Of a stretch of DNA of 64,000 nucleotides, positions 13,997-29,044 are shown piece by piece. Position 1 is the first letter of the stretch; every line of letters starts with the position of its first letter. The stretch comes from a virus, in the IMG/VR virus record IMGVR_UViG_3300034284_003265, positions 1-64,000 of that record, one strand, 5' to 3'. The notes beneath the pieces are model-generated. The model was given only the letters and a program-made list of their open reading frames with translations, did no database searches and had not been told where the DNA came from. The translations under genes were made by a program, and so were the position numbers.

Positions 13997-14043
13997 AAAA
14001 AGCTGTTGACTTTCTCCTCAACTCTGATATTCTATTTACACAA

Positions 14044-14196: not shown

Positions 14197-14240
14197 TTGT
14201 TCGGGGTAATACAATAACTTTAACTAACACTAACACTACT

Positions 14241-14753: not shown

Positions 14754-15123
14754 TAGGGTAGCTGGGTAGGGGGCTATGTCACTTTTAGCCTATTTATAAA
14801 CTTGACGGGGTAGGGGGTATAGCTCCCTACCTCTTTTTATTATAATAGGGGGGAGGGGGTATGGGGTACCCTACCGAAGATGGTTCTGAACATGAGAGGC
14901 TGCGCGCGGTACCCCGCGCGGGGATACGCACAGCACACATTGAGGTTTTTTACTTGGGAAAAAGCACATATGAACATTTGTTTAGTGTGCTTGGGGGTAG
15001 TTATAAAAAGTGGGGATAAAAGGGTGTTTTTGGAGGGTATTTTTTGGGTTTTTTTGAGAAGATGTGAAAAAAACAGGGGGAGTATTTTTTTGTTGGGGGA
15101 ATTTATATATGTTGACGTTGATA

Positions 15124-16014: not shown

Positions 16015-16093
16015 GTATAATTTAACAATATCTATATAATTGTTAAATTATTAATTTTTTATAATGTTTTAATTTGTATGTATTATAAAATAT

Positions 16094-16243
16094 ATGTTAT
16101 CGTTGAATGAAAGTCAGTTGATGTTATTGGGTTGGGTGATTACAATAGGCAGCAGCATTATTGTGATGGGGTTGACGTTATTGATGATGTATTGTATATA
16201 TAGTTTATATAGAATTGTAAAGAATTTTAGCAATAAAAATTGA
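16094..16243 (+). CDS. small membrane protein (49 aa)
   Basis: MLSLNESQLMLLGWVITIGSSIIVMGLTLLMMYC... hydrophobic helix. Confidence 0.5.
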   Translation: MLSLNESQLMLLGWVITIGSSIIVMGLTLLMMYCIYSLYRIVKNFSNKN

Positions 16244-16276
16244 TATTTGTATATATTGATGATATATATTAACGTA

Positions 16277-16360
16277 ATGAGAGTACATTATACAAATATT
16301 AAACGTTGGAATACCTTTACAAATTGTGAAGATAGAGGTATGGCGGCTGATATTGTGTAA
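16277..16360 (+). CDS. attenuator leader peptide 1 (MRVHYTNIKRWNTFTNCEDRGMAADIV)
   Basis: short ORF whose 3' end is the 5' strand of an antiterminator; codons match tRNA array 1. Confidence 0.8.
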   Translation: MRVHYTNIKRWNTFTNCEDRGMAADIV

Positions 16361-16424
16361 ATGTAGATCTAAAACCCAAACAATATCAACCGTCACCAAA
16401 AAAAGTGACGGTTTTTTTATTTTT
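16341..16424 (+). promoter_or_regulatory. attenuator 1: antiterminator 16341-16356/16380-16395, mutually exclusive with terminator 16388-16424
   Basis: TGGCGGCTGATATTGT pairs with ACAATATCAACCGTCA (15/16); terminator AACCGTCAC/GTGACGGTT + T tract. Confidence 0.85.
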
Positions 16425-16428
16425 GGTG

Positions 16429-16547
16429 TTGACGTTCTTTGGATGTGTGGTAAAGTAATTAAACAGTGAACGAAGTAAGTAGTTCATTAAATGATGAAAA
16501 AGAAATTTTAAAAGTCAGTTGACAACAGTGAAAGCTGTGATAGACTG
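16429..16547 (+). promoter_or_regulatory. two sigma70-type promoters upstream of tRNA array 1
   Basis: TTGACG..TAAAGT and TTGACA..TAGACT. Confidence 0.7.
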
Positions 16548-16651
16548 AGTGAAGAGTAAGGAAGGTTTGAAACTCCATCTGTTGAACCTCCTCCAGTGAA
16601 CCGAGTAATCGGCGATAAGGTAAAGTCTGGGAAAATCAATTGATTGGTCCG

Positions 16652-16679
16652 TGGGTGTTATGCTGAAATACAGAACCCA
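16652..16679 (+). repeat. 28-nt element identical to 24600-24627, in the leader of tRNA array 1
   Basis: TGGGTGTTATGCTGAAATACAGAACCCA. Confidence 0.95.
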
Positions 16680-16740
16680 TAGGGCGATGACAGTATTACT
16701 GAGGTGATTACTGTGAATGTTGAAGTAAAGAAAATTTAAC

Positions 16741-16822
16741 GCCGTTGTGAGTTGAGTGGTTGAAAACACCAGTTTTGTAAACTGGAAAATCATCGCAGGT
16801 TCGAATCCTGTCAACGGCTCCA
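16741..16822 (+). tRNA. tRNA-Thr(UGU)
   Basis: cloverleaf, CCAGT-TT TGT AA-ACTGG, TCCA end. Confidence 0.9.
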
Positions 16823-16834
16823 GATTATAGTAAT

Positions 16835-16910
16835 GGTGATATTGGTGTAACAGTTAGCACCTGAGTTTGTGAAACTCAAGGAACGAGGGCAGCACTCGTA
16901 TATCACCCCA
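16835..16910 (+). tRNA. tRNA-His(GUG)
   Basis: G-1 present, TT GTG AA loop, atypical T-loop GGCAGCA, CCCA end. Confidence 0.85.
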
Positions 16911-16918
16911 ATTTTAAT

Positions 16919-16994
16919 TACCCTATCGTCTAGGTTTAGGACGGATGTGTTCTCTGAGACATCAACCTTGGTGAAAATCCAAGTGGGGTAACCA
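16919..16994 (+). tRNA. atypical tRNA-Gln(CUG)/Glu(CUC)-like gene with a 10-nt anticodon loop
   Basis: TACCCTA/TGGGGTA ACCA; GATGT-GTTCTCTGAG-ACATC. Confidence 0.55.
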
Positions 16995-17000
16995 ATTTAT

Positions 17001-17078
17001 GCTTCGGTGGTGAAAATGGATTTATCACGCAACGCTACGAACGTTGAGTTTGGGGTTCGAATCCTCACTGAAGCGCCA
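17001..17078 (+). tRNA. tRNA-Arg(ACG)
   Basis: CAACG-CT ACG AA-CGTTG, GCCA. Confidence 0.9.
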
Positions 17079-17089
17079 ATTTACATAAT

Positions 17090-17166
17090 GGCCTCATCGT
17101 CTAATGGCAAAGGACGGTAGACTTTCAATCTACAAATCGTGGGTTCAATTCCCCGTGGGGCTACCA
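17090..17166 (+). tRNA. tRNA-Glu(UUC)
   Basis: GTAGA-CT TTC AA-TCTAC, ACCA. Confidence 0.9.
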
Positions 17167-17174
17167 TTTTAAAA

Positions 17175-17260
17175 GTGACGAGGGCAACAAAGAGACTTAA
17201 ACCCAAAAGATTGAAGGAGCCCTGCATGCCGGGTAATTCCTACTGGGGTAATCTCGTCAC
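17175..17260 (+). ncRNA. stem-closed non-tRNA RNA
   Basis: GTGACGAG/CTCGTCAC termini. Confidence 0.55.
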
Positions 17261-17270
17261 AATATTTAAC

Positions 17271-17347
17271 GGTCGCATCGTCTATGTGTGATAGGACACC
17301 ATCCTCTCAAGATGGAGAATAGGGTTCAAATCCCAATGCGACTACCA
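17271..17347 (+). tRNA. tRNA-Glu(CUC)
   Basis: CCATC-CT CTC AA-GATGG, ACCA. Confidence 0.9.
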
Positions 17348-17357
17348 TTTATAGTAT

Positions 17358-17435
17358 ATCCGCCAATGTTCCAAGGATTAGGCGACAGGCTCTCCAAAAG
17401 CCCGTGGGTAAGTTCGATTCTTACGGTGGATGCCA
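17358..17435 (+). tRNA. tRNA-Trp(CCA)
   Basis: GGCT-CT CCA AA-AGCC, GCCA. Confidence 0.85.
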
Positions 17436-17442
17436 TTTTTCA

Positions 17443-17556
17443 AATACATTAGGTGAAGGCAACGAACGTAGCTTAACTGGTAAAGCAACCGCACGAATAA
17501 GCGGGAGTCATTCAGTTCGAATCTGAATCAATAGTTGAAGTAGTAAGTAATGTATT
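17443..17556 (+). ncRNA. tRNA-like core inside an extended interrupted stem
   Basis: D-arm TAGCTTAACTGGTAAAGC, T-arm TTCAG-TTCGAAT-CTGAA, outer stem AATACATTA/TAATGTATT. Confidence 0.6.
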
Positions 17557-17647
17557 GACACTGATAGACATTGAAGGTTATAATCTGACGAGGTTATAAT
17601 TAGTAGGTGGAACAAGCATAGTGAAATCCAGTAAACATTTTTTTAAT

Positions 17648-17721
17648 TCTCGGATCGTATAATAGTATTACCTTCGGTTGTTACCCGAATGATAAGGGTG
17701 CGATTCCTTTTCCGAGAGCCA
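17648..17721 (+). tRNA. tRNA-Asn(GUU)
   Basis: TTCGG-TT GTT AC-CCGAA, GCCA. Confidence 0.9.
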
Positions 17722-17729
17722 TTTTCAAT

Positions 17730-17855
17730 TCCAGAGTAGCTCAATGGTAGAGCATTCGGCTGTGGGCCATAAAGTATTATTTAATAGAGAGTGCAAATCT
17801 CATAAGGCCAAAGTTAACCGAAATGTTGAAGGTTCGAGCCCTTCCTCTGGAGCCA
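17730..17855 (+). tRNA. tRNA-Asn(GUU) with a 51-nt insertion in the anticodon loop
   Basis: canonical body; removing 17762-17812 restores TTCGG-CT GTT AA-CCGAA. Confidence 0.75.
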
Positions 17856-17860
17856 TTTTC

Positions 17861-17965
17861 AAGTGGGACTAGTAATTGATAAAAAACAAATCAGATAGAT
17901 AAGCAAGTTCGAAATTGTTTGACCCGTGTGAAATCCTGATGTAAGTTTAGATGAAAGTCCCTTTT
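17861..17965 (+). ncRNA. stem-closed non-tRNA RNA
   Basis: GGGACT/AGTCCC termini, ATCAG/CTGAT inner helix. Confidence 0.45.
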
Positions 17966-17972
17966 AATTTTT

Positions 17973-18089
17973 TATATGATGTATGGAGTATGCTGATTAA
18001 GGGTTAGGCAGTTGATCAAATTGCAATAGTATGAACATAAAGTGCCTTAAGAGATTTAAATAATTTCATTGTTCATCATACATTATATA
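17973..18089 (+). ncRNA. stem-closed non-tRNA RNA
   Basis: ATATGATGTATG-like 5' end pairs with CATACATTATAT; inner TTAAGGG/CCTTAA. Confidence 0.5.
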
Positions 18090-18095
18090 TTTTTT

Positions 18096-18182
18096 GGGAG
18101 TATCGCATAGCAGCAATTGCAAGAGACTGTAAATCTCTCGGCCGAAAGGCCTACGTAGGTGCAAGTCCTACTGCTCCCACCA
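18096..18182 (+). tRNA. tRNA-Tyr(GUA)
   Basis: AGAGA-CT GTA AA-TCTCT, long variable arm, ACCA. Confidence 0.9.
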
Positions 18183-18187
18183 TTTTT

Positions 18188-18275
18188 GGGTTATTATACT
18201 ACTAAAGACGTAGCTCTGACTGTAAATCAGAAGGCCATAGTGCCTGGGTAGGAGCATTACCTACATAACCCACCA
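18188..18275 (+). tRNA. tRNA-Tyr(GUA)
   Basis: TCTGA-CT GTA AA-TCAGA, T-loop AGCATTA, ACCA. Confidence 0.85.
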
Positions 18276-18280
18276 TTTTT

Positions 18281-18430
18281 ATTCGGTGTCAGCAGGCTCA
18301 CGATGCTGAAGAAAGAGTTGATAATTGCAAGTATCAATGTCGTGGAGAGTGAGTGGGTTGATCTATACAAGATATCGTGCTATAGGTCGTAATGATGTCT
18401 GTTAAACATTCCCGTAAACCAACATCGAAT
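18281..18430 (+). ncRNA. stem-closed non-tRNA RNA
   Basis: ATTCGGTGT/ACATCGAAT termini; CACGAT/GTCGTG inner helix. Confidence 0.5.
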
Positions 18431-18435
18431 TGTTT

Positions 18436-18516
18436 TTGACAGGTGCTAGTGCGCATGGCGTGGTAAAGGAGCGGGCGACTCTGTTCCGAGAAGGTTCGAT
18501 TCCTTTGACTTGTCAA
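18436..18516 (+). ncRNA. tRNA-like RNA with a T-arm but no canonical anticodon arm
   Basis: TTGACAGGT/ACTTGTCAA, GAAGG-TTCGATT-CCTTT. Confidence 0.55.
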
Positions 18517-18528
18517 TTTATTTTTAAT

Positions 18529-18604
18529 CCCAGTTAAGCTAACCTAGTGAAAGCGCAAGTCTGAAGAACTTGAGAGGTTGGGGCGGAACCAACAACTGGG
18601 ACCA
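18529..18604 (+). tRNA. tRNA-Phe(GAA)
   Basis: CAAGT-CT GAA GA-ACTTG, T-loop GGCGGAA, ACCA. Confidence 0.85.
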
Positions 18605-18620
18605 TTTTTTAAGAAAGATG

Positions 18621-18648
18621 TTGACGGAACTATAAAGTGTGGTAAGAT
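18621..18648 (+). promoter_or_regulatory. internal sigma70-type promoter
   Basis: TTGACG-16-TAAGAT with extended TG. Confidence 0.65.
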
Positions 18649-18690
18649 GATTATAGTTCGTTGACAATGTAAGATGAAATTTTTAATAAT

Positions 18691-18769
18691 GGAAGTGAAG
18701 CTACAATAGACGGGCATCTGACTCTTAATCAGAATATTCGTGTGGGGGCAGTACCCACCACTTCCACCA
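18691..18769 (+). tRNA. tRNA-Lys(CUU)
   Basis: TCTGA-CT CTT AA-TCAGA, T-loop GGCAGTA. Confidence 0.85.
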
Positions 18770-18772
18770 ATT

Positions 18773-18886
18773 TTGAGTGGCGTATGAAAGATTCAATCGG
18801 TTCCATAAGGATTTAAAGAAGATATTCTTTTTTTCCGGGTATAAAAAATCCGTAATGGTCTCATAACTACGAGATATCCCGCTCAA
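18773..18886 (+). ncRNA. stem-closed non-tRNA RNA
   Basis: TTGAGTGG/CCGCTCAA termini; GGATTT/AAATCC inner helix. Confidence 0.5.
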
Positions 18887-18896
18887 GTTAATTTAT

Positions 18897-18974
18897 GGAT
18901 CGGTAACTCAACTGGATTAGAGTATTCGGCTCTTACCCGAAAGGTTGTGGGTTCAAATCCCACCCGGTCCACCA
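18897..18974 (+). tRNA. tRNA-Lys(CUU)
   Basis: TTCGG-CT CTT AC-CCGAA, ACCA. Confidence 0.9.
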
Positions 18975-19068
18975 TTTTGTAAGTCTAGCGGTAACTCGTA
19001 ACCGATATTTGCCGGGGTTGAAATCCTAGGGATTAAAGAGTGACAGAGGGAAAGACCCACCAATTTAT

Positions 19069-19147
19069 GGAGTCAAAGCCACAATAGACGGGCAGCCGGC
19101 TTTTAACCGGACGATTCGTGTGGGAGCATTACCCACTGGCTCCACCA
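19069..19147 (+). tRNA. tRNA-Lys(UUU)
   Basis: CCGG-CT TTT AA-CCGG, T-loop AGCATTA. Confidence 0.85.
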
Positions 19148-19485
19148 ATTTAATGGGTAACTGACCCCATAAGTGACTGCCGACCGGTACAATCGGTAAA
19201 ACACAGAGACGGCGTGGAGAGCACAGCACCAATTTTTGTTATTTGACAAAGCTAGTCAAGAAGGTTTGTATTGGGTCGCTCCTGATACTATTTCCTTGAA
19301 GATAGATACGAATATAGTTTAAGAGAAGAACGCCGGCGTGTGCTGGAGGCTTGAGGTGCAATTCCTCAATGAGTGTAGAACGTAATTTTACGTGAAATCC
19401 TTTAAAAAATCCAATTTCGTTATGTGTTTGATATAATATTCACGGTGTGAAAAGCTTCCGTGGCAAAAAATCAAATACATAATAT

Positions 19486-19564
19486 GGGGGTATAGTGTAA
19501 TTGGCTAACATCGCACACTGTCACTGTGCAGACTTGCTCGGTTCGAATCCGGCTACCCTCGCCA
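19486..19564 (+). tRNA. tRNA-Asp(GUC)
   Basis: GCACA-CT GTC AC-TGTGC, GCCA. Confidence 0.9.
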
Positions 19565-19571
19565 TTTCAAT

Positions 19572-19645
19572 TGGCTATTAGCTCAATAGTAGAGCATTCG
19601 GCTGATAACCGAAAGAACACGGGGCGGTACCGTGATAGCCAACCA
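19572..19645 (+). tRNA. tRNA-Ile(GAU)
   Basis: TTCGG-CT GAT AA-CCGAA, T-loop GGCGGTA. Confidence 0.88.
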
Positions 19646-19652
19646 TTTTAAC

Positions 19653-19729
19653 GCACTCGTAGCTCAATTGGATAGAGCAACTCGTTTCTACCGAGAAGGT
19701 TGCAGGTTCAAGTCCTGCCGGGTGTGCCA
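19653..19729 (+). tRNA. tRNA-Arg(UCU)
   Basis: CTCG-TT TCT AC-CGAG, GCCA. Confidence 0.9.
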
Positions 19730-19734
19730 TTTTT

Positions 19735-19808
19735 GCCTTCATAGTATAAAAGTATTACACATCATTGGTAATGATGAAACGCAGGGGCGGTACCTGCTGG
19801 AGGCTCCA
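19735..19808 (+). tRNA. tRNA-Thr(GGU)
   Basis: CATCA-TT GGT AA-TGATG, T-loop GGCGGTA, TCCA. Confidence 0.88.
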
Positions 19809-19861
19809 TATTAAAAATATATTTAGAAGTGTGGGGATTATATATATAGTAAAATAAATTT

Positions 19862-20665
19862 ATGGAATCTACAAACGCTCCCCAAACATTTTCGTTTACT
19901 AATAAAAAGGTATTATATGCAATAATTGCTGTAATTGTATTGGTAATTTTTGGATTATACACATTATTTAGTTCATTGAATAGAGATAATAAAGCTTTAA
20001 CTAAGAAGGTTGTTAATCAGACTGAGATTGTTGTAAATCAAAGTTTATTAATTACCAATTTAAATCAAAAGAATGTGGAATTGGCGACGTTATTGAAGAG
20101 TTATGACAATAAATTGAGTATATTGCATACTAATTTAACTCAGTTACAAAGTATTACCGAGAAGTTAAAAGTATCATCTGATGAAAAGGATGTGAAGATT
20201 AAAGATTTGTCTCAAGAAAAAACTGCGCTTGAATCTGATTTAAAGTCTTTGCGTAATACGCTTACAAAAATGACTAAAGAGATCGTAGATTTGAGTGATG
20301 AACTTAAAGTTGCTAAGACTGACAAAGATCAAAATGATCTTGTAGCTAAGATTGAAGAGCTTACGAAAGAAAGAGATTTTTTGAAGAACAAGATTGCTGA
20401 GTATGAAAAGATCATAGAAGAATTGAAGAAAGAAAATGCACTTTTGGCTCAAAATTTGCGACAAAATCTGAAAAAAGATGGATATGAATTTCACAACAAA
20501 TTGGGAGAGTGGCCAAAAGGTGCAGAAGTGTTGATGAGGATTGCTAAGCAAAATGCACAAAAGATTTTAGATGAAGTTAACAAAACTGATGAGCCAAAAG
20601 AAGAAGAAAAACCTAAAAAAGTAGGTTTTTGGAAGCGTATTTTTGGTTCGGGTGAAACTGAATGA
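19862..20665 (+). CDS. membrane-anchored coiled-coil protein
   Basis: N-terminal TM helix, long heptad region, C-terminal amphipathic GFWKRIFG. Confidence 0.8.
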   Translation: MESTNAPQTFSFTNKKVLYAIIAVIVLVIFGLYTLFSSLNRDNKALTKKVVNQTEIVVNQSLLITNLNQKNVELATLLKSYDNKLSILHTNLTQLQSITEKLKVSSDEKDVKIKDLSQEKTALESDLKSLRNTLTKMTKEIVDLSDELKVAKTDKDQNDLVAKIEELTKERDFLKNKIAEYEKIIEELKKENALLAQNLRQNLKKDGYEFHNKLGEWPKGAEVLMRIAKQNAQKILDEVNKTDEPKEEEKPKKVGFWKRIFGSGETE

Positions 20666-20671
20666 TTTAAT

Positions 20672-20745
20672 GCCTGTTTAGTTTAGTGGTAAAACGGTTG
20701 TTTCGTAAACAACGATCACAGGTTCGATTCCAGTAACAGGCTCCA
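20672..20745 (+). tRNA. tRNA-Thr(CGU)
   Basis: GTTGT-TT CGT AA-ACAAC, TCCA. Confidence 0.9.
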
Positions 20746-20752
20746 TATTAGT

Positions 20753-20827
20753 GTCTCGTTGGTCGAGTAGTTAGGCAGCTGTCTGCAAAACAGCATTAGG
20801 TTGGTGCAAATCCAACACGGGACTCCA
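20753..20827 (+). tRNA. tRNA-Cys(GCA)
   Basis: GCTGT-CT GCA AA-ACAGC, TCCA. Confidence 0.9.
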
Positions 20828-20844
20828 TTTTTTATATATTTATT

Positions 20845-21321
20845 ATGTATATGATATTATTGAGAAATTTACTCTCTGAGGCGCCTATTGGGTTAACAGT
20901 ATATAGAGGGGTTAATCCAGCTTATGGAGATGTAGGTTTGGGTATCAATAGTACCAAGATAGGTGATAAATTAGTTGCGACATTGGGGCCTAATCATACT
21001 GATAATTTAGATGTTGCTAAGCGATTTGGCAAACAGATAATAACTACTAAATTAAATGGATCTGGATTGGAATTGGCTCATTATAATGATATAATTAATT
21101 TATATAAGCAGTATGAAAATATGTTACCGCCTGGTCTTGCAAAACAAATCAAATATAGTAGTGGACAAGAACAATTGAATCTAATACAATTAGCTGGTAA
21201 AGAATTGCGTAATATATTGAGTAAGAAATATGGATATATCAAGAGTCCGCTAGCGGTGAGTGATGCTAATTATTTAAGTCAAAAAGGATTAACAGGAGAT
21301 TTGTATATACCGTTGAGATAA
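20845..21321 (+). CDS. hypothetical protein, possibly ADP-ribosyltransferase fold
   Basis: LRNLLSE leader; VYRG...HTDNLDVAKRF pattern. Confidence 0.5.
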   Translation: MYMILLRNLLSEAPIGLTVYRGVNPAYGDVGLGINSTKIGDKLVATLGPNHTDNLDVAKRFGKQIITTKLNGSGLELAHYNDIINLYKQYENMLPPGLAKQIKYSSGQEQLNLIQLAGKELRNILSKKYGYIKSPLAVSDANYLSQKGLTGDLYIPLR

Positions 21322-21340
21322 TCAAACTACTTATTTAGGT

Positions 21341-21514
21341 ATGGAAAGATCTAATCTCTATCAAAAGTTTTTGCAGTTAAAAAATGAAATAGAAAAACAC
21401 AAATGGATAGAGAGTGAGAAAAAAGGTAATGATATAGGTTTTGAGCGAGCATTAGTTGATTGGATGTCTAAACATAGAAATGGTTGGTGTGAGAATATAA
21501 AGCAGAATAAATAA
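21341..21514 (+). CDS. DUF4032-like small protein (57 aa, not in ORF track)
   Basis: EIEKHKWIESEKKGNDIGFERALVDW motif. Confidence 0.7.
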   Translation: MERSNLYQKFLQLKNEIEKHKWIESEKKGNDIGFERALVDWMSKHRNGWCENIKQNK

Positions 21515-21534
21515 AATTAATATATTTATAATAT

Positions 21535-21963
21535 ATGACCAAATCCGATTTTAAAAAAATTATAAAAGAATTGATGCTAGAAGTACTTTCCGAAGATTAT
21601 AAAGGTGAACCAAATCACGCAGCAGAAGTAGAAAGTGATAAATTAACCGCAACTCTTTCTGAAGATGACACCATTAAAGACATTAAGGATTTAGAGAAGT
21701 TGTTGAAGAACCCGGATCCAAGTAGAGTAAAAGATTATGGTTCTATTGATAAGTATAAAAAAATGTTAATAGCTAAAATTGCTAGATTAAAGAAACAAAA
21801 AAATGAAAGTGGCGATCCTTTTAGAGACATTGTGAAAAAGTATGCTAGTCTTTATAGAGATAGTGAATTATCCCGTAGAGAGAAGGAAGATTATTTTAAA
21901 TGGTTGCAAACAAATCAGCCTGAAAAATTCAAAAAGGTTGTAGATAAGATTAAAAAGAAGTAA
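21535..21963 (+). CDS. hypothetical (possible head-internal) protein
   Basis: KKIIKELMLEVLSE N-terminus; charged. Confidence 0.7.
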   Translation: MTKSDFKKIIKELMLEVLSEDYKGEPNHAAEVESDKLTATLSEDDTIKDIKDLEKLLKNPDPSRVKDYGSIDKYKKMLIAKIARLKKQKNESGDPFRDIVKKYASLYRDSELSRREKEDYFKWLQTNQPEKFKKVVDKIKKK

Positions 21964-22066
21964 AAATATAGGTTTAAATTTAAACAAGTGAAACGATTAA
22001 TGTAAAAATTAATCGTTTTATTTTTTATTGACAATCGACCGTTAACAAGTATAATAAAAGTATAGT

Positions 22067-22390
22067 ATGAATGAATTAAGTAAAATTGATATGGCGAATT
22101 TAGTCTTTAGTGAAGACAAAAAGATTAAAATCAAAAATGTATTATGTGATAAGTATGGTGCGACTGACGTTCAATATAGAGACCTATCATATGGTATTTG
22201 TATTGATGTAGTTGGAACTGACAGTTTTAGATTTGTCAAGAATGCCATAATGAAAACATTGGACGTTCATGAAGAAACGTTATCTGTTTTGGGCGAAAGT
22301 AAGAGAAGCATGAAAGCTTCTTATGTTTATTTGCCTGAAAAAGATAAAGCATTGAACAAACGTCTTAAAAAGTTAAAGACTACAGTCTAA
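22067..22390 (+). CDS. hypothetical protein
   Basis: behind a consensus TTGACA..TATAAT promoter. Confidence 0.7.
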   Translation: MNELSKIDMANLVFSEDKKIKIKNVLCDKYGATDVQYRDLSYGICIDVVGTDSFRFVKNAIMKTLDVHEETLSVLGESKRSMKASYVYLPEKDKALNKRLKKLKTTV

Positions 22391-22537
22391 AAATAATAAG
22401 TTATAATATTATTATAATAACTATATATAAATTAAATAATCAATTTCGAAAGGTGCATTTTTGACTTTTCGGATAACGTTAAGCTGTTCTTAACGTCGTT
22501 AGTAAACATAAACAAACAAAATAAAGGATAGTTAAAT

Positions 22538-23248
22538 ATGAAGAAAGTATTAGTATTATTGTCAGTATTGGCCGCTCTAGCAGTATCAGCTGGCGACAAC
22601 TCAAACCTCTCAGTAGAAGCTGGGTACAACAACCAATACATCGTAAATGGTGTAGCTCGTTCCGAGGGATCAGCATTTGTTGGTGTAGGTGCTGTAAAGA
22701 GTTTAAAGTATGCGGATGTATACTTGGGTGGTACTCTATTGGCTAATGGTGATCAAGATCAATCACACTGGACGTTGGGTGCTGGTAAGGAAGTTAGTGT
22801 ATGGAAGGATGTATTTTCTGCCCGTGCTGACGCTACTGTAACTCGCCATCAAGCTGGTAGTTTTGGTATTCCAAACAGTACTGAATTTGGTGTTAAGTTG
22901 GCTCTACCAAACAAGTTGGCAACTCCATATGTACGTGGTGCATTTGACATTGACCTAGACCAAAAGGGTGCATTCGTTGGTTTGGAACGTGCTCAAAAGT
23001 TGCCATTTGGTTTTGTAATTACTCCCGCTGTTGAATACGGTAAGGTATTTGGCGTATCGAGTGATTATACAGCTGTAAATGCTAAGGCATCATTGACTCG
23101 TCCATTCGAAACTTCATTTGGTGTATTGACTCCATTTGCTACTGTTGGATGGTATGATAATAATTTCAAGGTTGGCAATTATAATTGGGCAACCCGTGAA
23201 TTTAGTGGAGATGTAGTATATTCTGGTGGTTTGAGATTAACCTTCTAA
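22538..23248 (+). CDS. outer-membrane beta-barrel protein (TIGR02001-like)
   Basis: signal peptide, YNNQYIVNG motif, alternating strands, C-terminal GLRLTF. Confidence 0.75.
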   Translation: MKKVLVLLSVLAALAVSAGDNSNLSVEAGYNNQYIVNGVARSEGSAFVGVGAVKSLKYADVYLGGTLLANGDQDQSHWTLGAGKEVSVWKDVFSARADATVTRHQAGSFGIPNSTEFGVKLALPNKLATPYVRGAFDIDLDQKGAFVGLERAQKLPFGFVITPAVEYGKVFGVSSDYTAVNAKASLTRPFETSFGVLTPFATVGWYDNNFKVGNYNWATREFSGDVVYSGGLRLTF

Positions 23249-23272
23249 TCTAAACCAGAATAGTGTATGATG

Positions 23273-23300
23273 ACCCGCTTAGAAATAAGCGGGTTTTTTT
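23273..23300 (+). terminator. intrinsic terminator
   Basis: ACCCGCTTA/TAAGCGGGT + T tract. Confidence 0.85.
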
Positions 23301-23339
23301 ATTTTAATAGTCTATTTATAATTAAAGAAAGGTTTATTT

Positions 23340-24293
23340 ATGTCATCAACAAGTGGATCAAGTGGTAGTAGCGGAATAGGCACTTCCTCATTAAAAACAA
23401 TAGTTCTTCAATCGAAATCTGTAGTAACTAAATTTATATCTAATATATTGGTACCAAAAGTGATACATAGTACGGCAGTTGGTAGTAGTGGAATAGGTGG
23501 CAGTAGTGGATCTTCTGATAGTGTACGTACTAATTGGATATCGAATATTAAATCCACACTGATAAAAATGATGGTAGCCAGCAAAGACCGTAGTTTATTC
23601 AGTGCATTTATCCAATCTACTTTTTCTTGGGTTCGAAATCCTGCTTCTTGGGTGACATCTTATAAATGGACAGGTACTGCTGCTGGTATAAATGGACTTG
23701 GTGGTGTTGGAGGTGGAACTCTTATTACTAGCAAGCATGTCTTATTGTCTGCACACGTTCCTTATTTGCCAAATTCAGAAATCTTTTTTGTTAACGATAA
23801 CAATGTGACTTTCAAATACAACATCATCAAGATCGACAAGATTGATGGAAGTGATATTGCAATTGGAACGCTTGATCGATCAATTGATAGTAGTCTTAAG
23901 ATATATTCAGTATTACCAGACAACTGGCAACAATATATCAAAACTGAAATTAATAGTGTGATGGGGGTACAATTCATAACTTTACGGTTACCTGTGTTGT
24001 TCCTCAATCAAGACAAAAAAGTTTCAATTGGAGATATGACACGATTGATTGATGCAGTTGCTGATGTAGAATCTTCAGTATTTGGTACATCACAATCGTA
24101 TTATGAAACACAAAGAGTTGGTGATTCTGGAAATCCAATATTTGTGCAGGTAGGCAGTGAACTGGTACTGTTGGGTGCGTGGTATAAAGTTGGATCTTTT
24201 GCTTGGGTAATCAGTAGAAAAACTCAAATTGAGTCTATTATTGGTCAAAAACTGAACGTAATTAATATGACTGGATTTGAGAAGGTATCCTGA
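23340..24293 (+). CDS. trypsin-like serine protease
   Basis: GGTLITSKHVLLSAH, DIAIG, GDSGNP catalytic-triad motifs. Confidence 0.85.
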   Translation: MSSTSGSSGSSGIGTSSLKTIVLQSKSVVTKFISNILVPKVIHSTAVGSSGIGGSSGSSDSVRTNWISNIKSTLIKMMVASKDRSLFSAFIQSTFSWVRNPASWVTSYKWTGTAAGINGLGGVGGGTLITSKHVLLSAHVPYLPNSEIFFVNDNNVTFKYNIIKIDKIDGSDIAIGTLDRSIDSSLKIYSVLPDNWQQYIKTEINSVMGVQFITLRLPVLFLNQDKKVSIGDMTRLIDAVADVESSVFGTSQSYYETQRVGDSGNPIFVQVGSELVLLGAWYKVGSFAWVISRKTQIESIIGQKLNVINMTGFEKVS

Positions 24294-24333
24294 AAGTTAA
24301 TGAAGTTTATTTGAAAATTATTTAATAATTTTG

Positions 24334-24362
24334 TTGATTTTGAATTTCAAACACTATATATT
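24334..24362 (+). promoter_or_regulatory. promoter of leader 2
   Basis: TTGATT-17-TATATT, ATG 9 nt later. Confidence 0.6.
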
Positions 24363-24371
24363 ATTACGAAT

Positions 24372-24425
24372 ATGAATTTAATTTCACAACCTAGTCAAGC
24401 CAGTCAACTCCCATCCGGAAGTTGA
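24372..24425 (+). CDS. attenuator leader peptide 2 (MNLISQPSQASQLPSGS)
   Basis: stop codon overlaps the antiterminator strand; codons match tRNA array 2. Confidence 0.8.
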   Translation: MNLISQPSQASQLPSGS

Positions 24426-24495
24426 GTGAGAGGTTGTTTGCTATAAAGATCCAACCCGTCACTCTACGAAAAAAGAATGACGGGTTTTTGATTTT
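24424..24495 (+). promoter_or_regulatory. attenuator 2: antiterminator GAGTGA-GA-GGTTG/CAACC-CG-TCACTC versus terminator AACCCGTCA/TGACGGGTT + T tract
   Basis: mutually exclusive hairpins sharing 24453-24460. Confidence 0.8.
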
Positions 24496-24500
24496 AGTGG

Positions 24501-24528
24501 TTGACAATTTGAGAAGGTATGGTAAATT
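24501..24528 (+). promoter_or_regulatory. sigma70-type promoter upstream of tRNA array 2
   Basis: TTGACA-16-TAAATT with extended TG. Confidence 0.65.
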
Positions 24529-24599
24529 AGAAATATAACGAACGGGGTTGAAACTCTATCTGATGTCCCCAACGAAAGTTAAAACATTTGATCGGTCAC

Positions 24600-24627
24600 T
24601 GGGTGTTATGCTGAAATACAGAACCCA
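24600..24627 (+). repeat. 28-nt element identical to 16652-16679, in the leader of tRNA array 2
   Basis: TGGGTGTTATGCTGAAATACAGAACCCA. Confidence 0.95.
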
Positions 24628-24668
24628 ACTGGCGATAATTAAAATAAGTTAAATAACAATTTTTAAAT

Positions 24669-24743
24669 GGGCGGTTAGCTCAGTGGAAGAGCAGGACCTT
24701 TACACGGTCAAGGCCAGAGGTTCAAATCCTTTACCGCCTACCA
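24669..24743 (+). tRNA. tRNA-Val(UAC)
   Basis: GACC-TT TAC AC-GGTC, ACCA. Confidence 0.9.
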
Positions 24744-24750
24744 TTTTAAT

Positions 24751-24824
24751 CGGTCACAAGTGTTACGGTAGCATACGTGCTTTGGGAGCATGGGGAGACA
24801 GTTCAATTCTGTCGTGGCCGACCA
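24751..24824 (+). tRNA. tRNA-Pro(UGG)
   Basis: CGTGC-TT TGG GA-GCATG, C1-G72, ACCA. Confidence 0.9.
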
Positions 24825-24831
24825 TTTTATT

Positions 24832-24916
24832 GGGCATATGATGTAATTGGCAGCCATGCGAGTCTTAGAAGCTCGTGGAGAAATCCGTGGGGGTTCAAGT
24901 CCCTCTATGCCCACCA
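24832..24916 (+). tRNA. tRNA-Leu(UAG)
   Basis: CGAGT-CT TAG AA-GCTCG, long variable arm. Confidence 0.9.
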
Positions 24917-24924
24917 ATTTAAAT

Positions 24925-25002
24925 GGTTACGTAGACCAACTGGAAGGAGTCGTCTATCTCAAAAATAGAATAGTGCTGGTTCGAATCCAGTCGTAACTAC
25001 CA
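24925..25002 (+). tRNA. tRNA-Leu(CAA), short variable arm
   Basis: TCTAT-CT CAA AA-ATAGA, ACCA. Confidence 0.85.
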
Positions 25003-25010
25003 ATTTCAAT

Positions 25011-25095
25011 GGGTGTGTGGATGAGGGAAACTGGCACAACCGCAATACTTAAGATATTGTATCCTATGTAGGTTCGAATCCTACCACACCTACCA
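25011..25095 (+). tRNA. tRNA-Leu(UAA)
   Basis: CAATA-CT TAA GA-TATTG, enlarged D region, ACCA. Confidence 0.8.
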
Positions 25096-25104
25096 ATTTT
25101 ATAT

Positions 25105-25197
25105 GGATGATAGGCAGATATAAGCTGGCTGCACTAGTCTTGAAAACTAGGTCCGTCTAAAAAACGGAGGTCCGGGCAGTACGGACATCATCCGCCA
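25105..25197 (+). tRNA. tRNA-Ser(UGA)
   Basis: CTAGT-CT TGA AA-ACTAG, long variable arm, T-loop GGCAGTA, GCCA. Confidence 0.88.
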
Positions 25198-25281
25198 TTT
25201 TAATACAACTCCACTTGACAATGGAACCGAAGACTGATAATATCGTCTCTTGAAGAAATCGGAGTTTGTCAAAAGATTTAT

Positions 25282-25374
25282 GGAGGTGACGTAGATAGTC
25301 AGGTTTCTACAGCAGTTTGCTAAACTGCCGTGGTCTAAAAGCCACTGAGGGGGCAGCACCCTTCGCCTCCGCCA
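25282..25374 (+). tRNA. tRNA-Ser(GCU)
   Basis: GCAGT-TT GCT AA-ACTGC, long variable arm, T-loop GGCAGCA. Confidence 0.88.
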
Positions 25375-25377
25375 TTT

Positions 25378-25451
25378 GCGGGTATAGCTTAGTGGTAAAG
25401 CGCCAGTCTTCCAAACTGGCAAGGTGAGTTCGATTCTCACTACCCGCTCCA
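25378..25451 (+). tRNA. tRNA-Gly(UCC)
   Basis: CCAGT-CT TCC AA-ACTGG, GCG...TCCA. Confidence 0.92.
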
Positions 25452-25458
25452 ATTTAAC

Positions 25459-25532
25459 TGGGGATTTGCATAATGGTAGTGCGGCAGACTTTGAATCTGC
25501 TTGTGGTGGTTCGATTCCATCATCCCCAACCA
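25459..25532 (+). tRNA. tRNA-Gln(UUG)
   Basis: GCAGA-CT TTG AA-TCTGC, U1-A72. Confidence 0.92.
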
Positions 25533-25539
25533 ATTTAAT

Positions 25540-25615
25540 CGGAATGTAATGTCAATAGTAGACGGCCTGGTTTGGAGCTAGGAGGTTGCAGGTGCGAGTC
25601 CTGTCATTCCGACCA
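25540..25615 (+). tRNA. tRNA-Pro(UGG)
   Basis: CCTGG-TT TGG AG-CTAGG, ACCA; A37. Confidence 0.85.
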
Positions 25616-25622
25616 TTTTATA

Positions 25623-25738
25623 TATCAGACAACGGTAGAGGTTTGAACTTGGCTAGGTCCGAAACAATAACCAACGGCTGTGTTCGGCTAATAATCTGTG
25701 GGTTAAATATGCCCATAAAACCGCCAAGGTGTCTGGTA
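25623..25738 (+). ncRNA. stem-closed non-tRNA RNA
   Basis: TATCAGACA/TGTCTGGTA termini. Confidence 0.5.
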
Positions 25739-25792
25739 ATTTTTTGTTTTTTGATTTGACTTATACTATATATTGGTGTAAGATTTTTAAAT

Positions 25793-25867
25793 GGGCTGTT
25801 AGTGATAGTGGTAGCACGGGAGCTTTGCAAGCTTTAGGGAAGAGTTCGATTCTCTTACGGTCCACCA
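25793..25867 (+). tRNA. tRNA-Ala(UGC)
   Basis: TT TGC AA loop, G3:U70, ACCA. Confidence 0.9.
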
Positions 25868-25919
25868 TTTTAAATTAATGTATGTTGGTTAGTTTCAACT
25901 ATATATTAATGTTGAGATC

Positions 25920-25993
25920 GCGGGTATGATGTAGTGGTAGCCTGCAACCTTGCCAAGGTCGATGTGCCGGTTCGATTCCGGCTACCCGCTCCA
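25920..25993 (+). tRNA. tRNA-Gly(GCC)
   Basis: ACC-TT GCC AA-GGT, GCG...TCCA. Confidence 0.9.
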
Positions 25994-26008
25994 ATTTTAT
26001 AATGTGTT

Positions 26009-26809
26009 ATGTATAAAGGCAAAAAAGTTATATTGACTACAACTGCTTGTAAAAGAATTAATTTATTAAAAGCAGCCATTAAAAGTTTTGGAATTTTTTG
26101 TACAGATAAACACGTAATAGATGAAATTCATTATTATGATGATTCTTCAACACCAGAAGAACGTAATATTGCGATGGAATATTACAAGAAACATATTCCA
26201 GATAAATTGATTAGTTTTAGATTTTTTGAGAAAGAATCTTTTCCGGATAATTATAGACATGCTAGAGTGTTAAATTATTGGAGACAGGGAATTATTAACT
26301 CAAACGCGGAGTATGTATTTCACTTAGAAGATGACCATCAATTCTATAATATGTTTACAATAGGCGATCCTATTGATATTATGGAAGAAAATCAAGAATA
26401 TGGATATATTGGATATTGTCAGAGTTGGAAAAATTTTCCAAAAGATATGTATCCTAAAAAAATAATAGGAAAGTTTTGGGAAACTGTTTACTTTGATAAT
26501 AAACCTATTAATGACCTTTTATTTTTAGACGATGTTATGGCGATGCACACTGGATTAGATTGGTGGATGTATTATATTAACTGGCCATATTTTTCATTGA
26601 GACCGGGAGTACATGATGTTAAAAAGTTATTGTCAGTTGGCGAGTTTTCTACAACATATGATCGTGAAAAAATGAGTGTAGAATTAGAATTTGCAATACG
26701 CTGGAAAAATATGGGATATAAGAGTATGATGTCAAAAATATTTACATCTTTACATACAGGCCAAAATCCAGAATTAAGTGCGTATAAAATTAATAATTCA
26801 GCTAGATGA
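26009..26809 (+). CDS. GT-A fold (family 2-like) glycosyltransferase
   Basis: TTACKR...YDDSS...FHLEDD motifs. Confidence 0.75.
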   Translation: MYKGKKVILTTTACKRINLLKAAIKSFGIFCTDKHVIDEIHYYDDSSTPEERNIAMEYYKKHIPDKLISFRFFEKESFPDNYRHARVLNYWRQGIINSNAEYVFHLEDDHQFYNMFTIGDPIDIMEENQEYGYIGYCQSWKNFPKDMYPKKIIGKFWETVYFDNKPINDLLFLDDVMAMHTGLDWWMYYINWPYFSLRPGVHDVKKLLSVGEFSTTYDREKMSVELEFAIRWKNMGYKSMMSKIFTSLHTGQNPELSAYKINNSAR

Positions 26810-27423
26810 AAGATAATATAGATCCTAAAAAATTAGTGGATTATTGTGTTAACTCTGAGTTAATGCATAAGTGCATATTTATGCAAGTGTATGAAGAGTT
26901 TTTAACCTTTTCATATTGGTTAAAAGGTTTTCAGCCAAATAATATTCTTGAAATAGGTACTATGGGTAGTACTTTTTGGATAATGAATAAACTATCTTCT
27001 GGGAAAAAAGTTTCTATAGACATAGAAAATAGAGAATCTATAATACATCATTTTATGTGGGAAGAAGATTGGATGTTTGTCGCTGGATCATCCCAAGATC
27101 CAAACAATTTTGATAAAATAAAAAATAAATGTGACAAGTATGATCTAATTTTTATAGATGGTGATCATAGCTACGATGGAGTTAAAAATGATTTTAATTT
27201 GTACAAAAGTCTTTTATCAGACCGTGGTTATATAGCATTTCACGATATCGATCCAAATCATATATTTGCTGGATCTTATGCTGGAGAAGTTTATAAATTC
27301 TGGCAAGATTTAGACGAAGGGTCCAAAATTAATTTGACATGTACCAAGTCTTCTGGTAAAGTAAAACTAAATGGAATATATTCACATGGATTTGGTGGAA
27401 TAGGTCTTTGGACTCCAAATTGA
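26806..27423 (+). CDS. class I SAM-dependent methyltransferase (Methyltransf_24-like)
   Basis: ILEIGT, DLIFIDGDHSYDGV, IAFHD. Confidence 0.85.
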   Translation: MKDNIDPKKLVDYCVNSELMHKCIFMQVYEEFLTFSYWLKGFQPNNILEIGTMGSTFWIMNKLSSGKKVSIDIENRESIIHHFMWEEDWMFVAGSSQDPNNFDKIKNKCDKYDLIFIDGDHSYDGVKNDFNLYKSLLSDRGYIAFHDIDPNHIFAGSYAGEVYKFWQDLDEGSKINLTCTKSSGKVKLNGIYSHGFGGIGLWTPN

Positions 27424-27453
27424 TATTTATAATTAGTTCTTTTAAAATTTTAT

Positions 27454-27838
27454 GGGCGCGTACTGGTATCGATTTAATAGTACACGTATGTTAGGCACGT
27501 AGAGGATGATAGTTGGCCTCTTTAATACACCTATCGAAATATTAACTGCTGAAGATAACGTAGTTAGCTATGACTTCTCTTACGATGAAGTAGTAGCCCT
27601 TGCAGCCTAAGTTGTTGCACATTCAATACAATGAAGTCTGATATTTGTGTTGAGTGTAAATTATTGGACTGGACCAAATATTTGATTTGCGTAAATGGTC
27701 GAGATATTAGTAAATCTTAAGGGTAATATTTTTAGATATTTTTCATTATTACTCCCTAACAATTTAAAATATATAAGCGTGTAGTCTGATGTAGGTTATC
27801 TGTTAAACACGGCGGTTCAACTCCGCCCGCGTCCACCA
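27454..27838 (+). ncRNA. ssrA: tmRNA; tag (A)AEDNVVSYDFSYDEVVALAA
   Basis: GGGCGCG/CGCGTCC-ACCA with G3:U70, T-arm GGCGG-TTCAACT-CCGCC, ATTAACT-GCT resume site, tag ends ALAA-stop. Confidence 0.93.
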
Positions 27839-27840
27839 TT

Positions 27841-28056
27841 TTATTCTGGTTCAAAATCAATGTAGCTATCAATAATCAACACTCCACTATCATTGATGTA
27901 ACCTTCTTCAATTAAATACTTCGTGATTCGTTCTCTACAACAATCATCCTCGTATAGATCACATTTTTCTGGATGTCTTAGTACAACAAATCTGTTAGCC
28001 CAAACAGTTATATCGTGGTTGTTTATACTAACTTGGTGAAAATTAATCTCTTCCAT
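27841..28056 (-). CDS. small hypothetical protein
   Basis: ORF with KYLIEEGYI motif. Confidence 0.65.
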   Translation of the reverse strand: MEEINFHQVSINNHDITVWANRFVVLRHPEKCDLYEDDCCRERITKYLIEEGYINDSGVLIIDSYIDFEPE

Positions 28057-28081
28057 TAAGTATAAGTATATTTATACAGTA

Positions 28082-28492
28082 ATGAAAAGATATAGTTTAT
28101 TATACGAATCTAGCATATATGATTATCTAGTGTGGGAACCAACTGGAAAATTTCAGTATATTGCTGATGAGTTAGATAAAATTCCTACAGACAGTACTAA
28201 ACTTTATAGAGGAATGTCTGAGAAAGAATATAATATTTTGAAGAGTACTGGTAAAGTTACTTCAAGAGGTAAAGGAAATACCCGAAACATATCAGGTAGT
28301 TATCTAGCGAGTGATTTTAAATTGGCAGCTAGGTTTGCCTTGGTCAATTACAGAGACAAAGGAGAAGGTATTATAGTAGTAGTAGATAAAAGTAAGTTAC
28401 CCGATTTAAAAAATGTAGATCCAGGTAATTATGTTACTAGTTATATACCGATAGAAGCAGTAACCAAAATTATAGACTTAAAACAGTTATGA
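28082..28492 (+). CDS. putative ADP-ribosyltransferase-fold protein
   Basis: KLYRGMS...SYLASDFKLAARFA pattern. Confidence 0.55.
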   Translation: MKRYSLLYESSIYDYLVWEPTGKFQYIADELDKIPTDSTKLYRGMSEKEYNILKSTGKVTSRGKGNTRNISGSYLASDFKLAARFALVNYRDKGEGIIVVVDKSKLPDLKNVDPGNYVTSYIPIEAVTKIIDLKQL

Positions 28493-28674
28493 GTAACATT
28501 AAACTAACAAAGGCTGAAGCCGAAAAGAAAGTATATCAACTAACCGAAGATCTCTTACACGTTAAGAAAGACTTCAAAGATGTAGCTGCTGGCTACAAAG
28601 ATCGTATGAAAGAAATTGAATCTGAAATTAAAGCTATCGTAGAAGAAGCTTCAATTGGAGATCCAACTAAGTAA
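28489..28674 (+). CDS. small coiled-coil protein
   Basis: overlapping start/stop with the upstream gene. Confidence 0.7.
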   Translation: MSNIKLTKAEAEKKVYQLTEDLLHVKKDFKDVAAGYKDRMKEIESEIKAIVEEASIGDPTK

Positions 28675-28677
28675 AAC

Positions 28678-28705
28678 AAAACCCGGTCTTTCGACCGGGT
28701 TTTTT
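28678..28705. terminator. bidirectional terminator
   Basis: AAAACCCGGTC-TTTC-GACCGGGTTTTT between convergent genes. Confidence 0.9.
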
Positions 28706-28707
28706 AT

Positions 28708-28989
28708 TTATTGTTTAGATATTGGTTTAAACGTACCGTCTTTTAAATTCAGACTGCCGTCACCGTATTTTTGACTCAACGAGTTTAGTAAATTATCTTC
28801 TTCTTGTTGAGTTTTCTTCCAATTTTCAAATACTTCATTTCTACGAAGTGTCAATTCTTTAATTTGTTGTTCCAAATCTGTTTTCTCCAAATCAACTTGA
28901 CCTAAAGTAAAGATATGTTGTTGATAATCATTTTGCAATTTAGCAATTGATTGCATTTCTTGCTCTGTAAACTTAATAACGTCACTCAT
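28708..28989 (-). CDS. conserved phage coiled-coil protein
   Basis: KFTEQE...LSQKYGDGSLNLKDGTF motif. Confidence 0.8.
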   Translation of the reverse strand: MSDVIKFTEQEMQSIAKLQNDYQQHIFTLGQVDLEKTDLEQQIKELTLRRNEVFENWKKTQQEEDNLLNSLSQKYGDGSLNLKDGTFKPISKQ

Positions 28990-29044
28990 AGTATTTTTAT
29001 ATACATATGAACGACGTTATTTTTTTAGTTTTTATAATCGATTA

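Follow-up and report, generated by a model that had tools for sequence, protein, structure and literature searches.

A probable ribosome-mediated attenuator in front of a tRNA gene array of an uncultured freshwater giant phage

Attenuation by a leader peptide is textbook knowledge, and here we describe a probable case of it in which the regulated genes encode transfer RNAs (tRNAs). The element in question occupies positions 24334-24495 of a stretch of viral DNA of 64,000 nucleotides (nt; hereafter the window, positions 1 to 64,000 of IMG/VR record IMGVR_UViG_3300034284_003265). It precedes the second of two tRNA gene arrays, which together contain all detectable tRNA genes of the window. We consider it probable that the element is a ribosome-mediated attenuator, such that read-through into the array rises when the codons of a short leader open reading frame (ORF) are decoded slowly. 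The parts of the element and the array behind it are as follows.

24334..24362, plus strand: upstream promoter P_up2, with -35 TTGATT (24334-24339), a 17-nt spacer and -10 TATATT (24357-24362)
24372..24425, plus strand: leader ORF 2, 17 codons plus TGA, peptide MNLISQPSQASQLPSGS followed by the stop
24386..24392, plus strand: region 1, ACAACCT, within codons 5-7, which pairs with AGGTTGT (24431-24437) in the full-length minimum-energy fold
24424..24437, plus strand: region 2, the 5' strand of the antiterminator, GAGTGAGAGGTTG(T), beginning inside the stop codon
24452..24464, plus strand: region 3, CAACCCGTCACTC, both the 3' strand of the antiterminator and the 5' arm of the terminator
24453..24495, plus strand: intrinsic terminator 2, stem AACCCGTCA...TGACGGGTT (24453-24486), then the U-run TTTTTGATTTT
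24501..24528, plus strand: putative downstream promoter P_down2, TTGACA, 16 nt and TGgTAAATT (extended -10), between the terminator and array 2
24543..24640, plus strand: shared structured element of about 100 nt, with motifs GGGGTTGAAACTCTATCTG... and TGGGTGTTATGCTGAAATACAGAACCCA..GGCGAT
24669..25993, plus strand: tRNA array 2, gene order Val, Pro, Leu (three genes), Ser (two genes), Gly, Gln, Pro, Ala, Gly

The array-2 anticodons are Val-UAC, Pro-UGG (twice), Leu-UAG, Leu-CAA, Leu-UAA, Ser-UGA, Ser-GCU, Gly-UCC, Gln-UUG, Ala-UGC and Gly-GCC. A sister element stands in front of array 1 and is built from the following parts.

16240..16425, plus strand: sister attenuator 1, comprising promoter, ORF (16277-16360), regions 1 and 2, antiterminator and terminator
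16277-16360, plus strand: leader ORF 1, peptide MRVHYTNIKRWNTFTNCEDRGMAADIV followed by the stop
16284-16301 and 16348-16365, plus strand: regions 1 and 2 of leader 1, respectively
16337-16356 with 16380-16397, plus strand: leader 1 antiterminator
16388-16413 plus U-run, plus strand: leader 1 terminator (z = -4.8 for the leader 1 RNA fold)
16741..20827, plus strand: tRNA array 1, with Thr, His, Arg, Glu, Trp, Asn, Tyr, Phe, Lys, Asp, Ile and Cys

An attenuator of this kind carries a short ORF that starts near the 5' end of its transcript, and leader ORF 2, with 17 codons and a -10-like hexamer ending 9 nt upstream of its ATG, has this form. Its codons (ATG AAT TTA ATT TCA CAA CCT AGT CAA GCC AGT CAA CTC CCA TCC GGA AGT TGA) agree exactly, at 24372-24425, with those listed in a first-pass annotation of this DNA, which had placed the start of the element at 24334, the first base of the -35-like TTGATT. 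The same annotation had claimed that codons 5-17 all specify amino acids of array 2. The codon list and the tRNA inventory bear this out, as these codons encode exclusively Ser, Gln, Pro, Ala, Leu and Gly and the array has tRNAs for all six. The match it had drawn between individual codons and tRNAs stands for all 13 at the level of the amino acid, but at the level of the isoacceptor only 10 of the 13 codons are readable by array tRNAs via Watson-Crick or standard wobble pairing. The pattern had also been reported at 16277, where it recurs with a complementary set of amino acids: codons 2-20 of leader 1 include all 12 array-1 amino acids, the sole outsider being Val at codon 3. This Val is accounted for by relatives L044, L056 and L057, in which a Val-UAC tRNA lies inside array 1. 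At this coarse level the codons of both leaders therefore match the product of the genes behind them.

How often such content would arise by chance was estimated in several ways. Among the stop-free six-frame windows of the 64 kb, 74 of 51,869 overlapping 16-mers are as rich in array-2 amino acids (about 1.4e-3), mostly within a collagen-like gene, while the leader 1 19-mer is the single match among 45,686 when at least 18 of 19 residues must fall in the array-1 set with 12 different ones. Dinucleotide shuffles of each leader's own nucleotides, a control for local base composition in which only open frames were counted, gave p = 5.5e-5 for leader 2 and p = 1.2e-4 for leader 1. The bias is confined to the ATG frame, being absent from the other five frames of the same DNA, and the two leaders divide between the two amino-acid sets far from evenly (18/1 versus 2/14, Fisher test, p = 7e-7).

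The second body of evidence concerns the RNA, which can adopt mutually exclusive helices 1:2, 2:3 and 3:4 upstream of the array. The full-length leader 2 RNA (121 nt) folds into the 1:2 helix plus the terminator at 24453-24486 (-35.4 kcal/mol, z = -3.9), and the terminator ends in the U-run TTTTTGATTTT, as expected of an intrinsic terminator preceding regulated genes. When the 3' arm of the terminator is left out, or when a modelled ribosome sits at codon 12 or earlier, the minimum-energy fold becomes the 2:3 antiterminator (-17 to -20 kcal/mol), in which GAGUGAGAGGUUG (24424-24436) pairs with CAACCCGUCACUC (24452-24464). This is the pairing that had been proposed from the letters alone, GAGTGA-GA-GGTTG, starting within TGA, with CAACC-CG-TCACTC in the terminator 5' arm, and it was recovered here in full. 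Once the modelled ribosome has reached codon 15, and equally when it sits at the stop, the antiterminator is lost, and region 2 falls within the footprint of a terminating ribosome. Leader 1 switches folds in the same way, from 1:2 plus terminator to antiterminator, and the topology is the same in both leaders despite unrelated region 1 and region 2 sequences.

To judge the switch against chance, the terminator was held fixed and the RNA upstream of it was shuffled 1500 times per leader. An antiterminator equal to or better than the observed one appeared in 1 of 1500 shuffles for leader 2 and in 5 of 1500 for leader 1. The whole switch, counted only if masking gave an antiterminator, the free full-length RNA folded into a terminator and region 1 sequestered region 2, appeared in none of the 1500 for either leader. 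The two terminators had been said to share a CCGTCAC core, and this was confirmed: the CCGTCA..TGAYGG core is found only at the two leaders in the 64 kb (0.09 expected). Common ancestry of the two is plausible, since the CCGTCAC core, the downstream promoter and the structured element are all shared.

Among the matches listed in scans of IMG/VR for relatives of the phage, leader 2 is present on about 25 contigs and leader 1 on about 17. Leader 2 occurs in seven distinct DNA versions, and in most lineages its variation is synonymous only, at Pro7 (CCT/CCA), Ala10 (GCC/GCT/GCA), Ser15 (TCC/TCA/TCT) and Gly16 (GGA/GGG). Amino-acid changes in codons 5-17 are restricted to the divergent contig L064, where two of four remain within the array-2 set. 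The N-terminus reads NLI, NSV or ISQ, the NSV form supplying the missing Val, and replacements overall fall mostly within the array-2 set (LI to SV, L to S, S to V). Leader 1 is present as nine distinct peptides, seven of which hold all 12 amino acids, with synonymous changes at Lys, Arg, Thr and Val. Its 3' part, GRCGGYTGATATTGTG, keeps its nucleotides in the L031 type even though they are read there in another frame, which argues for conservation of RNA structure rather than of peptide. In both leaders the stems are invariant or change from G-C to G-U, whereas the loops are free in sequence and length. One further change in leader 1, a His/Asn swap between codons 4 and 7, was considered as compensation that keeps one His codon, but it is not assignable to composition alone because AAT to CAT also improves the 1:2 helix.

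The promoter is conserved along with the ORF. P_up2 is sigma-70-like, and relatives retain both of its hexamers and a gap of 8-9 nt to the ATG while the intervening bases vary and the flanking genes differ. Leader 1 has a comparable promoter, with -35 at 16240-16245 and -10 within 16263-16270, ending 6-8 nt before its ATG. From these positions we infer a 5' untranslated region of about 0-3 nt, so that the mRNA would be near-leaderless. The lack of a Shine-Dalgarno sequence before the leader ORF was rejected as a special feature, given that a Shine-Dalgarno-like motif stands before just 6 of 29 long phage genes. The promoters are of canonical sigma-70 type, and the low count of such motifs suggests a host with Shine-Dalgarno-independent initiation. 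Across contigs the promoter-ORF-terminator module is found behind different upstream genes, indicating that it travels with the array. One lineage, L015 (77-286) and L016 (reverse strand, about 8990-9205), uses the leader-2 promoter for an ORF of 66 codons, MVIEKTYKL...VTVSEPVTVSEPSQASQLPSES followed by the stop, which has the same last 11 residues, stop codon, antiterminator and terminator as the 17-codon leader.

Transcripts of these regions were sought in four river or freshwater metatranscriptomes, available as assembled contigs with one depth figure per contig. RNA contigs cover both arrays and both leader regions, with relatives' variants at 24443, 24451 and 24468. RNA spanning the terminator exists: one contig passes the U-run into the -35 of P_down2, and two contain the P_down2 -10. 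Another links the leader 1 ORF to the structured element downstream. The protein genes at 21115-22478 are nearly uncovered (three of four bins zero in all four runs, the fourth with a depth of 1.93 in one run), which argues against DNA carry-over. Contig ends near 24535-24543 give a weak hint that P_down2 is active.

Put together, the parts suggest an attenuator of the trp/his/thr type that would work as follows. RNA polymerase would start at P_up2, 0-3 nt before the AUG, and a ribosome would load on the near-leaderless RNA. If it ran through all 17 codons to the UGA it would cover region 2 (24424-24437), allowing the terminator (24453-24486) to form and yielding a transcript of about 120 nt. 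In the absence of a ribosome, region 1 (24386-24392) would pair with region 2, and the terminator would again form. A ribosome stalled at about codons 3-13, for want of tRNAs for Ser, Gln, Pro, Ala or Leu (uncharged, depleted or cleaved), would mask region 1 and leave region 2 free to pair with the terminator 5' arm, so that polymerase would continue via P_down2 and the conserved element into the array. The outcome would be negative feedback on the supply of decoding capacity, and the sister element at 16277 would work likewise for the complementary array of 12 amino acids.

The attenuator reading offered by the first-pass annotation is thus supported by a full 1:2/2:3/3:4 switch, coding conservation of the ORF, a promoter at fixed distance and RNA contigs across the terminator. 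Several observations nonetheless weigh against it. Attenuated genes should depend on read-through with no intervening promoter, but a conserved promoter-like site separates terminator from array at both loci (24501-24528; 16429-16456), and additional promoter-like sites lie within the arrays. P_down2 is sigma-70-like, directly follows the U-run, looks stronger than P_up2 and is present in all relatives. Read-through can therefore only add to array transcription and not gate it. Because P_down2 can drive the array alone, the attenuator would add an inducible share to basal expression, and this promoter, which the first-pass annotation did not mention, qualifies its reading to that extent. The codons raise difficulties of their own. 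Being scattered singles rather than runs, they may give only a weak response to any one scarce tRNA. GCC, CTC and TCC lie outside the standard wobble of any array tRNA and would need U34:C pairing or host tRNAs, and codons 14-17 adjoin region 2 so closely that a stall there would favor termination. The RNA evidence, consisting of assembled contigs, cannot give transcript ends, strand or levels. Alignments of the available relatives show no two-sided compensatory covariation of base pairs, the helix bases being invariant across relatives as close as these. Covariation thus neither proves nor contradicts the structures, and the helices stand on conservation and the shuffle tests.

The relatives also limit how finely leader and array can be said to correspond. 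It had been proposed that leader composition would follow array content among them, and this stands for the coarse partition: the split of amino acids between the two arrays, with matching leaders, is kept in all relatives. It fails for single tRNA gains and losses, which are not mirrored, the fine-scale comparison giving one match and two mismatches. The match is L059, in which Glu tRNAs and Glu codons are both missing. The array of L008 is likewise without Glu tRNAs, yet its leader retains Glu (GAA), and Cys has been lost from L023-type leaders while tRNA-Cys is kept in the L033 array. Gln-CUG tRNAs do not co-occur with CAG codons. Fine-scale co-evolution of leader and array is contradicted by L008 and by the L023/L033 type, and we do not claim it. 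Finally, array 2 and the conserved element occur in the L018 lineage with no leader 2 before them, and in L015 and L016 the promoter is the same but the ORF behind it has 66 codons, the last of them forming the leader tail.

Both the scattered codons and the failure of tracking in two of three informative relatives would suit a different kind of sensor. The element could be a real ribosome-dependent attenuator that reports general elongation rate or ribosome availability (under host shut-off or ribosome-targeting defense) and not particular tRNAs, with the composition match a by-product of ancestry. The nearest precedent, the trn array of Anabaena, does answer general translational stress (PMC8421152). 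However, a general sensor leaves unexplained why two paralogous leaders should have complementary sets that match their own arrays, as the Fisher test (p = 7e-7) and the shuffles indicate, and why replacements in relatives mostly remain inside the matching set. We regard it as rather unlikely.

A further alternative takes its cue from the architecture, namely a unit with its own promoter, an efficient-looking terminator and a strong promoter directly after it. The strongly structured RNA of about 120 nt, or the micropeptide, might then have a function of its own, for example as a trans-acting small RNA like rnTrpL, with the terminator insulating the array promoter and read-through irrelevant. 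Trans-acting attenuator RNAs and leader peptides are known in Sinorhizobium (PMC7968998, PMC7298713). Such a stand-alone unit has no need of an exceptional and conserved 2:3 helix that sequesters the terminator arm, it does not account for the match of composition to the adjacent array, and RNA contigs traverse the terminator, all of which makes it distinctly unlikely. It is barely credible that the site consists of nothing more than a terminator for the upstream gene (23340-24293) and then the array promoter, with ORF and pairings due to chance, since although that gene has no other terminator before 24453 and the AT-rich window abounds in promoter-like sites (84 found versus 55 expected), relatives have the module behind different upstream genes, the ORF is conserved with synonymous changes, composition (p of about 5e-5) and switch (0/1500 shuffles) both exceed chance, and a paralogous copy with the same logic lies at 16277.

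Beyond the attenuator itself, we tentatively entertain a broader idea, in which the tRNA genes of giant phages are distributed over blocks and every block is gated by its own leader peptide, whose residues enumerate the amino acids served there, as a phage-encoded homeostat of decoding capacity. Depletion of host tRNAs, through codon-usage mismatch, host shut-off or anticodon-nuclease defense, would then stall the ribosome on the matching codon and cause the block to be topped up.

Between the downstream promoter and the first tRNA gene, both arrays carry the structured element. Its array-1 copy lies at 16545-16690, behind the sister copy of P_down2 at 16429-16456. The element comprises a hairpin with the conserved loop TTGAAACTCYATCTG, followed by TGGGTGTTATGCTGAAATACAGAACCCA..GGCGAT, and the hairpin stem covaries between the copies (GGGG/CCCC, GGGC/GCCC). 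It has no Rfam match at E values up to 1, and could be a processing or processive-antitermination signal.

The arrays themselves hold several unusual genes. Odd T-loops (GGCAGYA) occur in both Ser tRNA genes of array 2 and in several others, and these genes were missed by default ARAGORN and Rfam but detected with a custom scanner, while homologues in relatives were called by ARAGORN. Those with non-canonical T-loops (GGCAGYA or AGCATTA, not TTCRANT) are His-GUG (16836-16910), Lys-CUU (18691-18769), Lys-UUU (19069-19147), Ser-UGA (25105-25197) and Ser-GCU (25282-25374). Their acceptor stem and anticodon arm are normal, CCA is encoded, and most of them escape default ARAGORN/Rfam. Relatives carry homologues with odd T-loops, such as Asp-GUC at 19245-19320 of G001, the record behind L059. 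At 16919-16994 lies a tRNA-like gene, called by ARAGORN, whose anticodon loop has 8 nt (CTCT). It is possibly a four-base decoder, and its position is kept in many relatives (L023, L033, L044, L056, L057). The tRNA-Asn(GUU) gene (17730-17855) has a 51-nt interruption (17762-17812) in the anticodon loop, and RNA contigs from the four metatranscriptomes skip exactly these 51 nt. The skip is no proof of splicing, as the DNA of G001 has the gene without the insert (18469-18543). Non-tRNA units of about 100 nt with an 8-bp terminal stem also lie between tRNA genes, at 17169-17270 and at 18276-18381 of G001 (stems GTGACGAG...CTCGTCAC; TTTGATGA...TCATCAAA). Downstream of array 2 there is one further RNA gene.

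27454-27838: transfer-messenger RNA (tmRNA)

The 64 kb are part of a 91-kb IMG/VR virus record with a completeness estimate of 31%, and many lake-water metagenomes hold DNA near-identical to the window. The leader region gave no blastn match among the cultured phages of INPHARED. The best matches of a structural protein, to a Microcystis phage and to one uncultured phage, reach only about 25% identity, and because the structural proteins are no closer than this to any cultured phage we take the source to be an uncultured freshwater giant phage. A possible hint of the host comes from G001, where an ORF within array 1 (about 19760-20440, seen in L074/L075) has prepilin-type N-terminal methylation and H-X9-DG-like motifs. 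Proteins of this type are expanded in Planctomycetota and Verrucomicrobiota, which may point to a host there.

Were the attenuator reading true, tRNA supply could itself come under ribosome-sensed feedback, and the sorting of phage tRNA genes into two blocks with complementary amino-acid sets would be explained. The purpose of phage tRNA arrays has long been debated, with compensation of codon usage and replacement of tRNAs lost to host shut-off or defense among the candidates, and a simple reporter would suffice to test it directly. As to the leaders, each would serve as a compact natural sensor that gauges decoding capacity for a defined set of codons. If the tentative block homeostat were also true, tRNA genes would have their first known case of control by attenuation, and the phage a sensor-coupled means of countering defenses that target tRNAs. 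A full-text literature search, with most subscription journals outside its coverage, found no published case of a leader-peptide attenuator of tRNA genes; the targets of leader-peptide attenuation in the literature searched were amino-acid synthesis, a synthetase, and pyrimidine or resistance genes.

The closest formal parallels are the multivalent leader-peptide attenuators of enterobacteria, in which the thr leader names Thr and Ile and the ilvGMEDA leader Ile, Leu and Val, and the related trpL. Like these, the phage element has a short ORF near the 5' end with codons naming what is regulated, exclusive 1:2, 2:3 and 3:4 helices, and an intrinsic terminator with a U-run, and the logic proposed here is also theirs, in that a stall in the ORF would favor the antiterminator and a ribosome at the stop the terminator. 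Unlike them, it would regulate tRNA genes rather than biosynthetic enzymes, its leaders name 6-12 different amino acids, any of which appears between one and five times, where the enterobacterial leaders have runs of one to three, its mRNA is apparently leaderless and a second promoter lies between attenuator and genes. No Rfam leader family matches it: the curated families (Trp_leader, His_leader, Thr_leader and others) gave nothing at 24334-24495 or 16240-16425 at E values up to 1, and a sub-threshold Trp_leader match lies elsewhere, at 23218-23302 (23.9 bits versus a cut-off of 41 bits). The attenuator of pheST, the phenylalanyl-tRNA synthetase genes of E. coli, likewise applies ribosome-mediated attenuation to the translation apparatus and not to amino-acid synthesis, but it is tuned to one amino acid, by consecutive Phe codons, and its target is a protein gene. 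T-box riboswitches, too, switch between terminator and antiterminator according to tRNA status in front of translation-related genes, but they bind uncharged tRNA directly and require no ORF, and T-box (RF00230) has no Rfam match in 14000-30000 at E values up to 1. In Anabaena sp. PCC 7120 the trn operon, a long tRNA array, is induced by translational stress (PMC8421152, a text that contains none of the terms attenuation, leader peptide or terminator), and its control lies with TrcR, a ribbon-helix-helix (RHH) repressor that binds direct 9-nt repeats over the -10 and the transcription start (PMC10272220). Anabaena trn is thus regulated by a protein repressor at the promoter, unlike the phage element, yet it is an accessory tRNA array whose expression rises when translation is impaired, as is proposed for the phage array.
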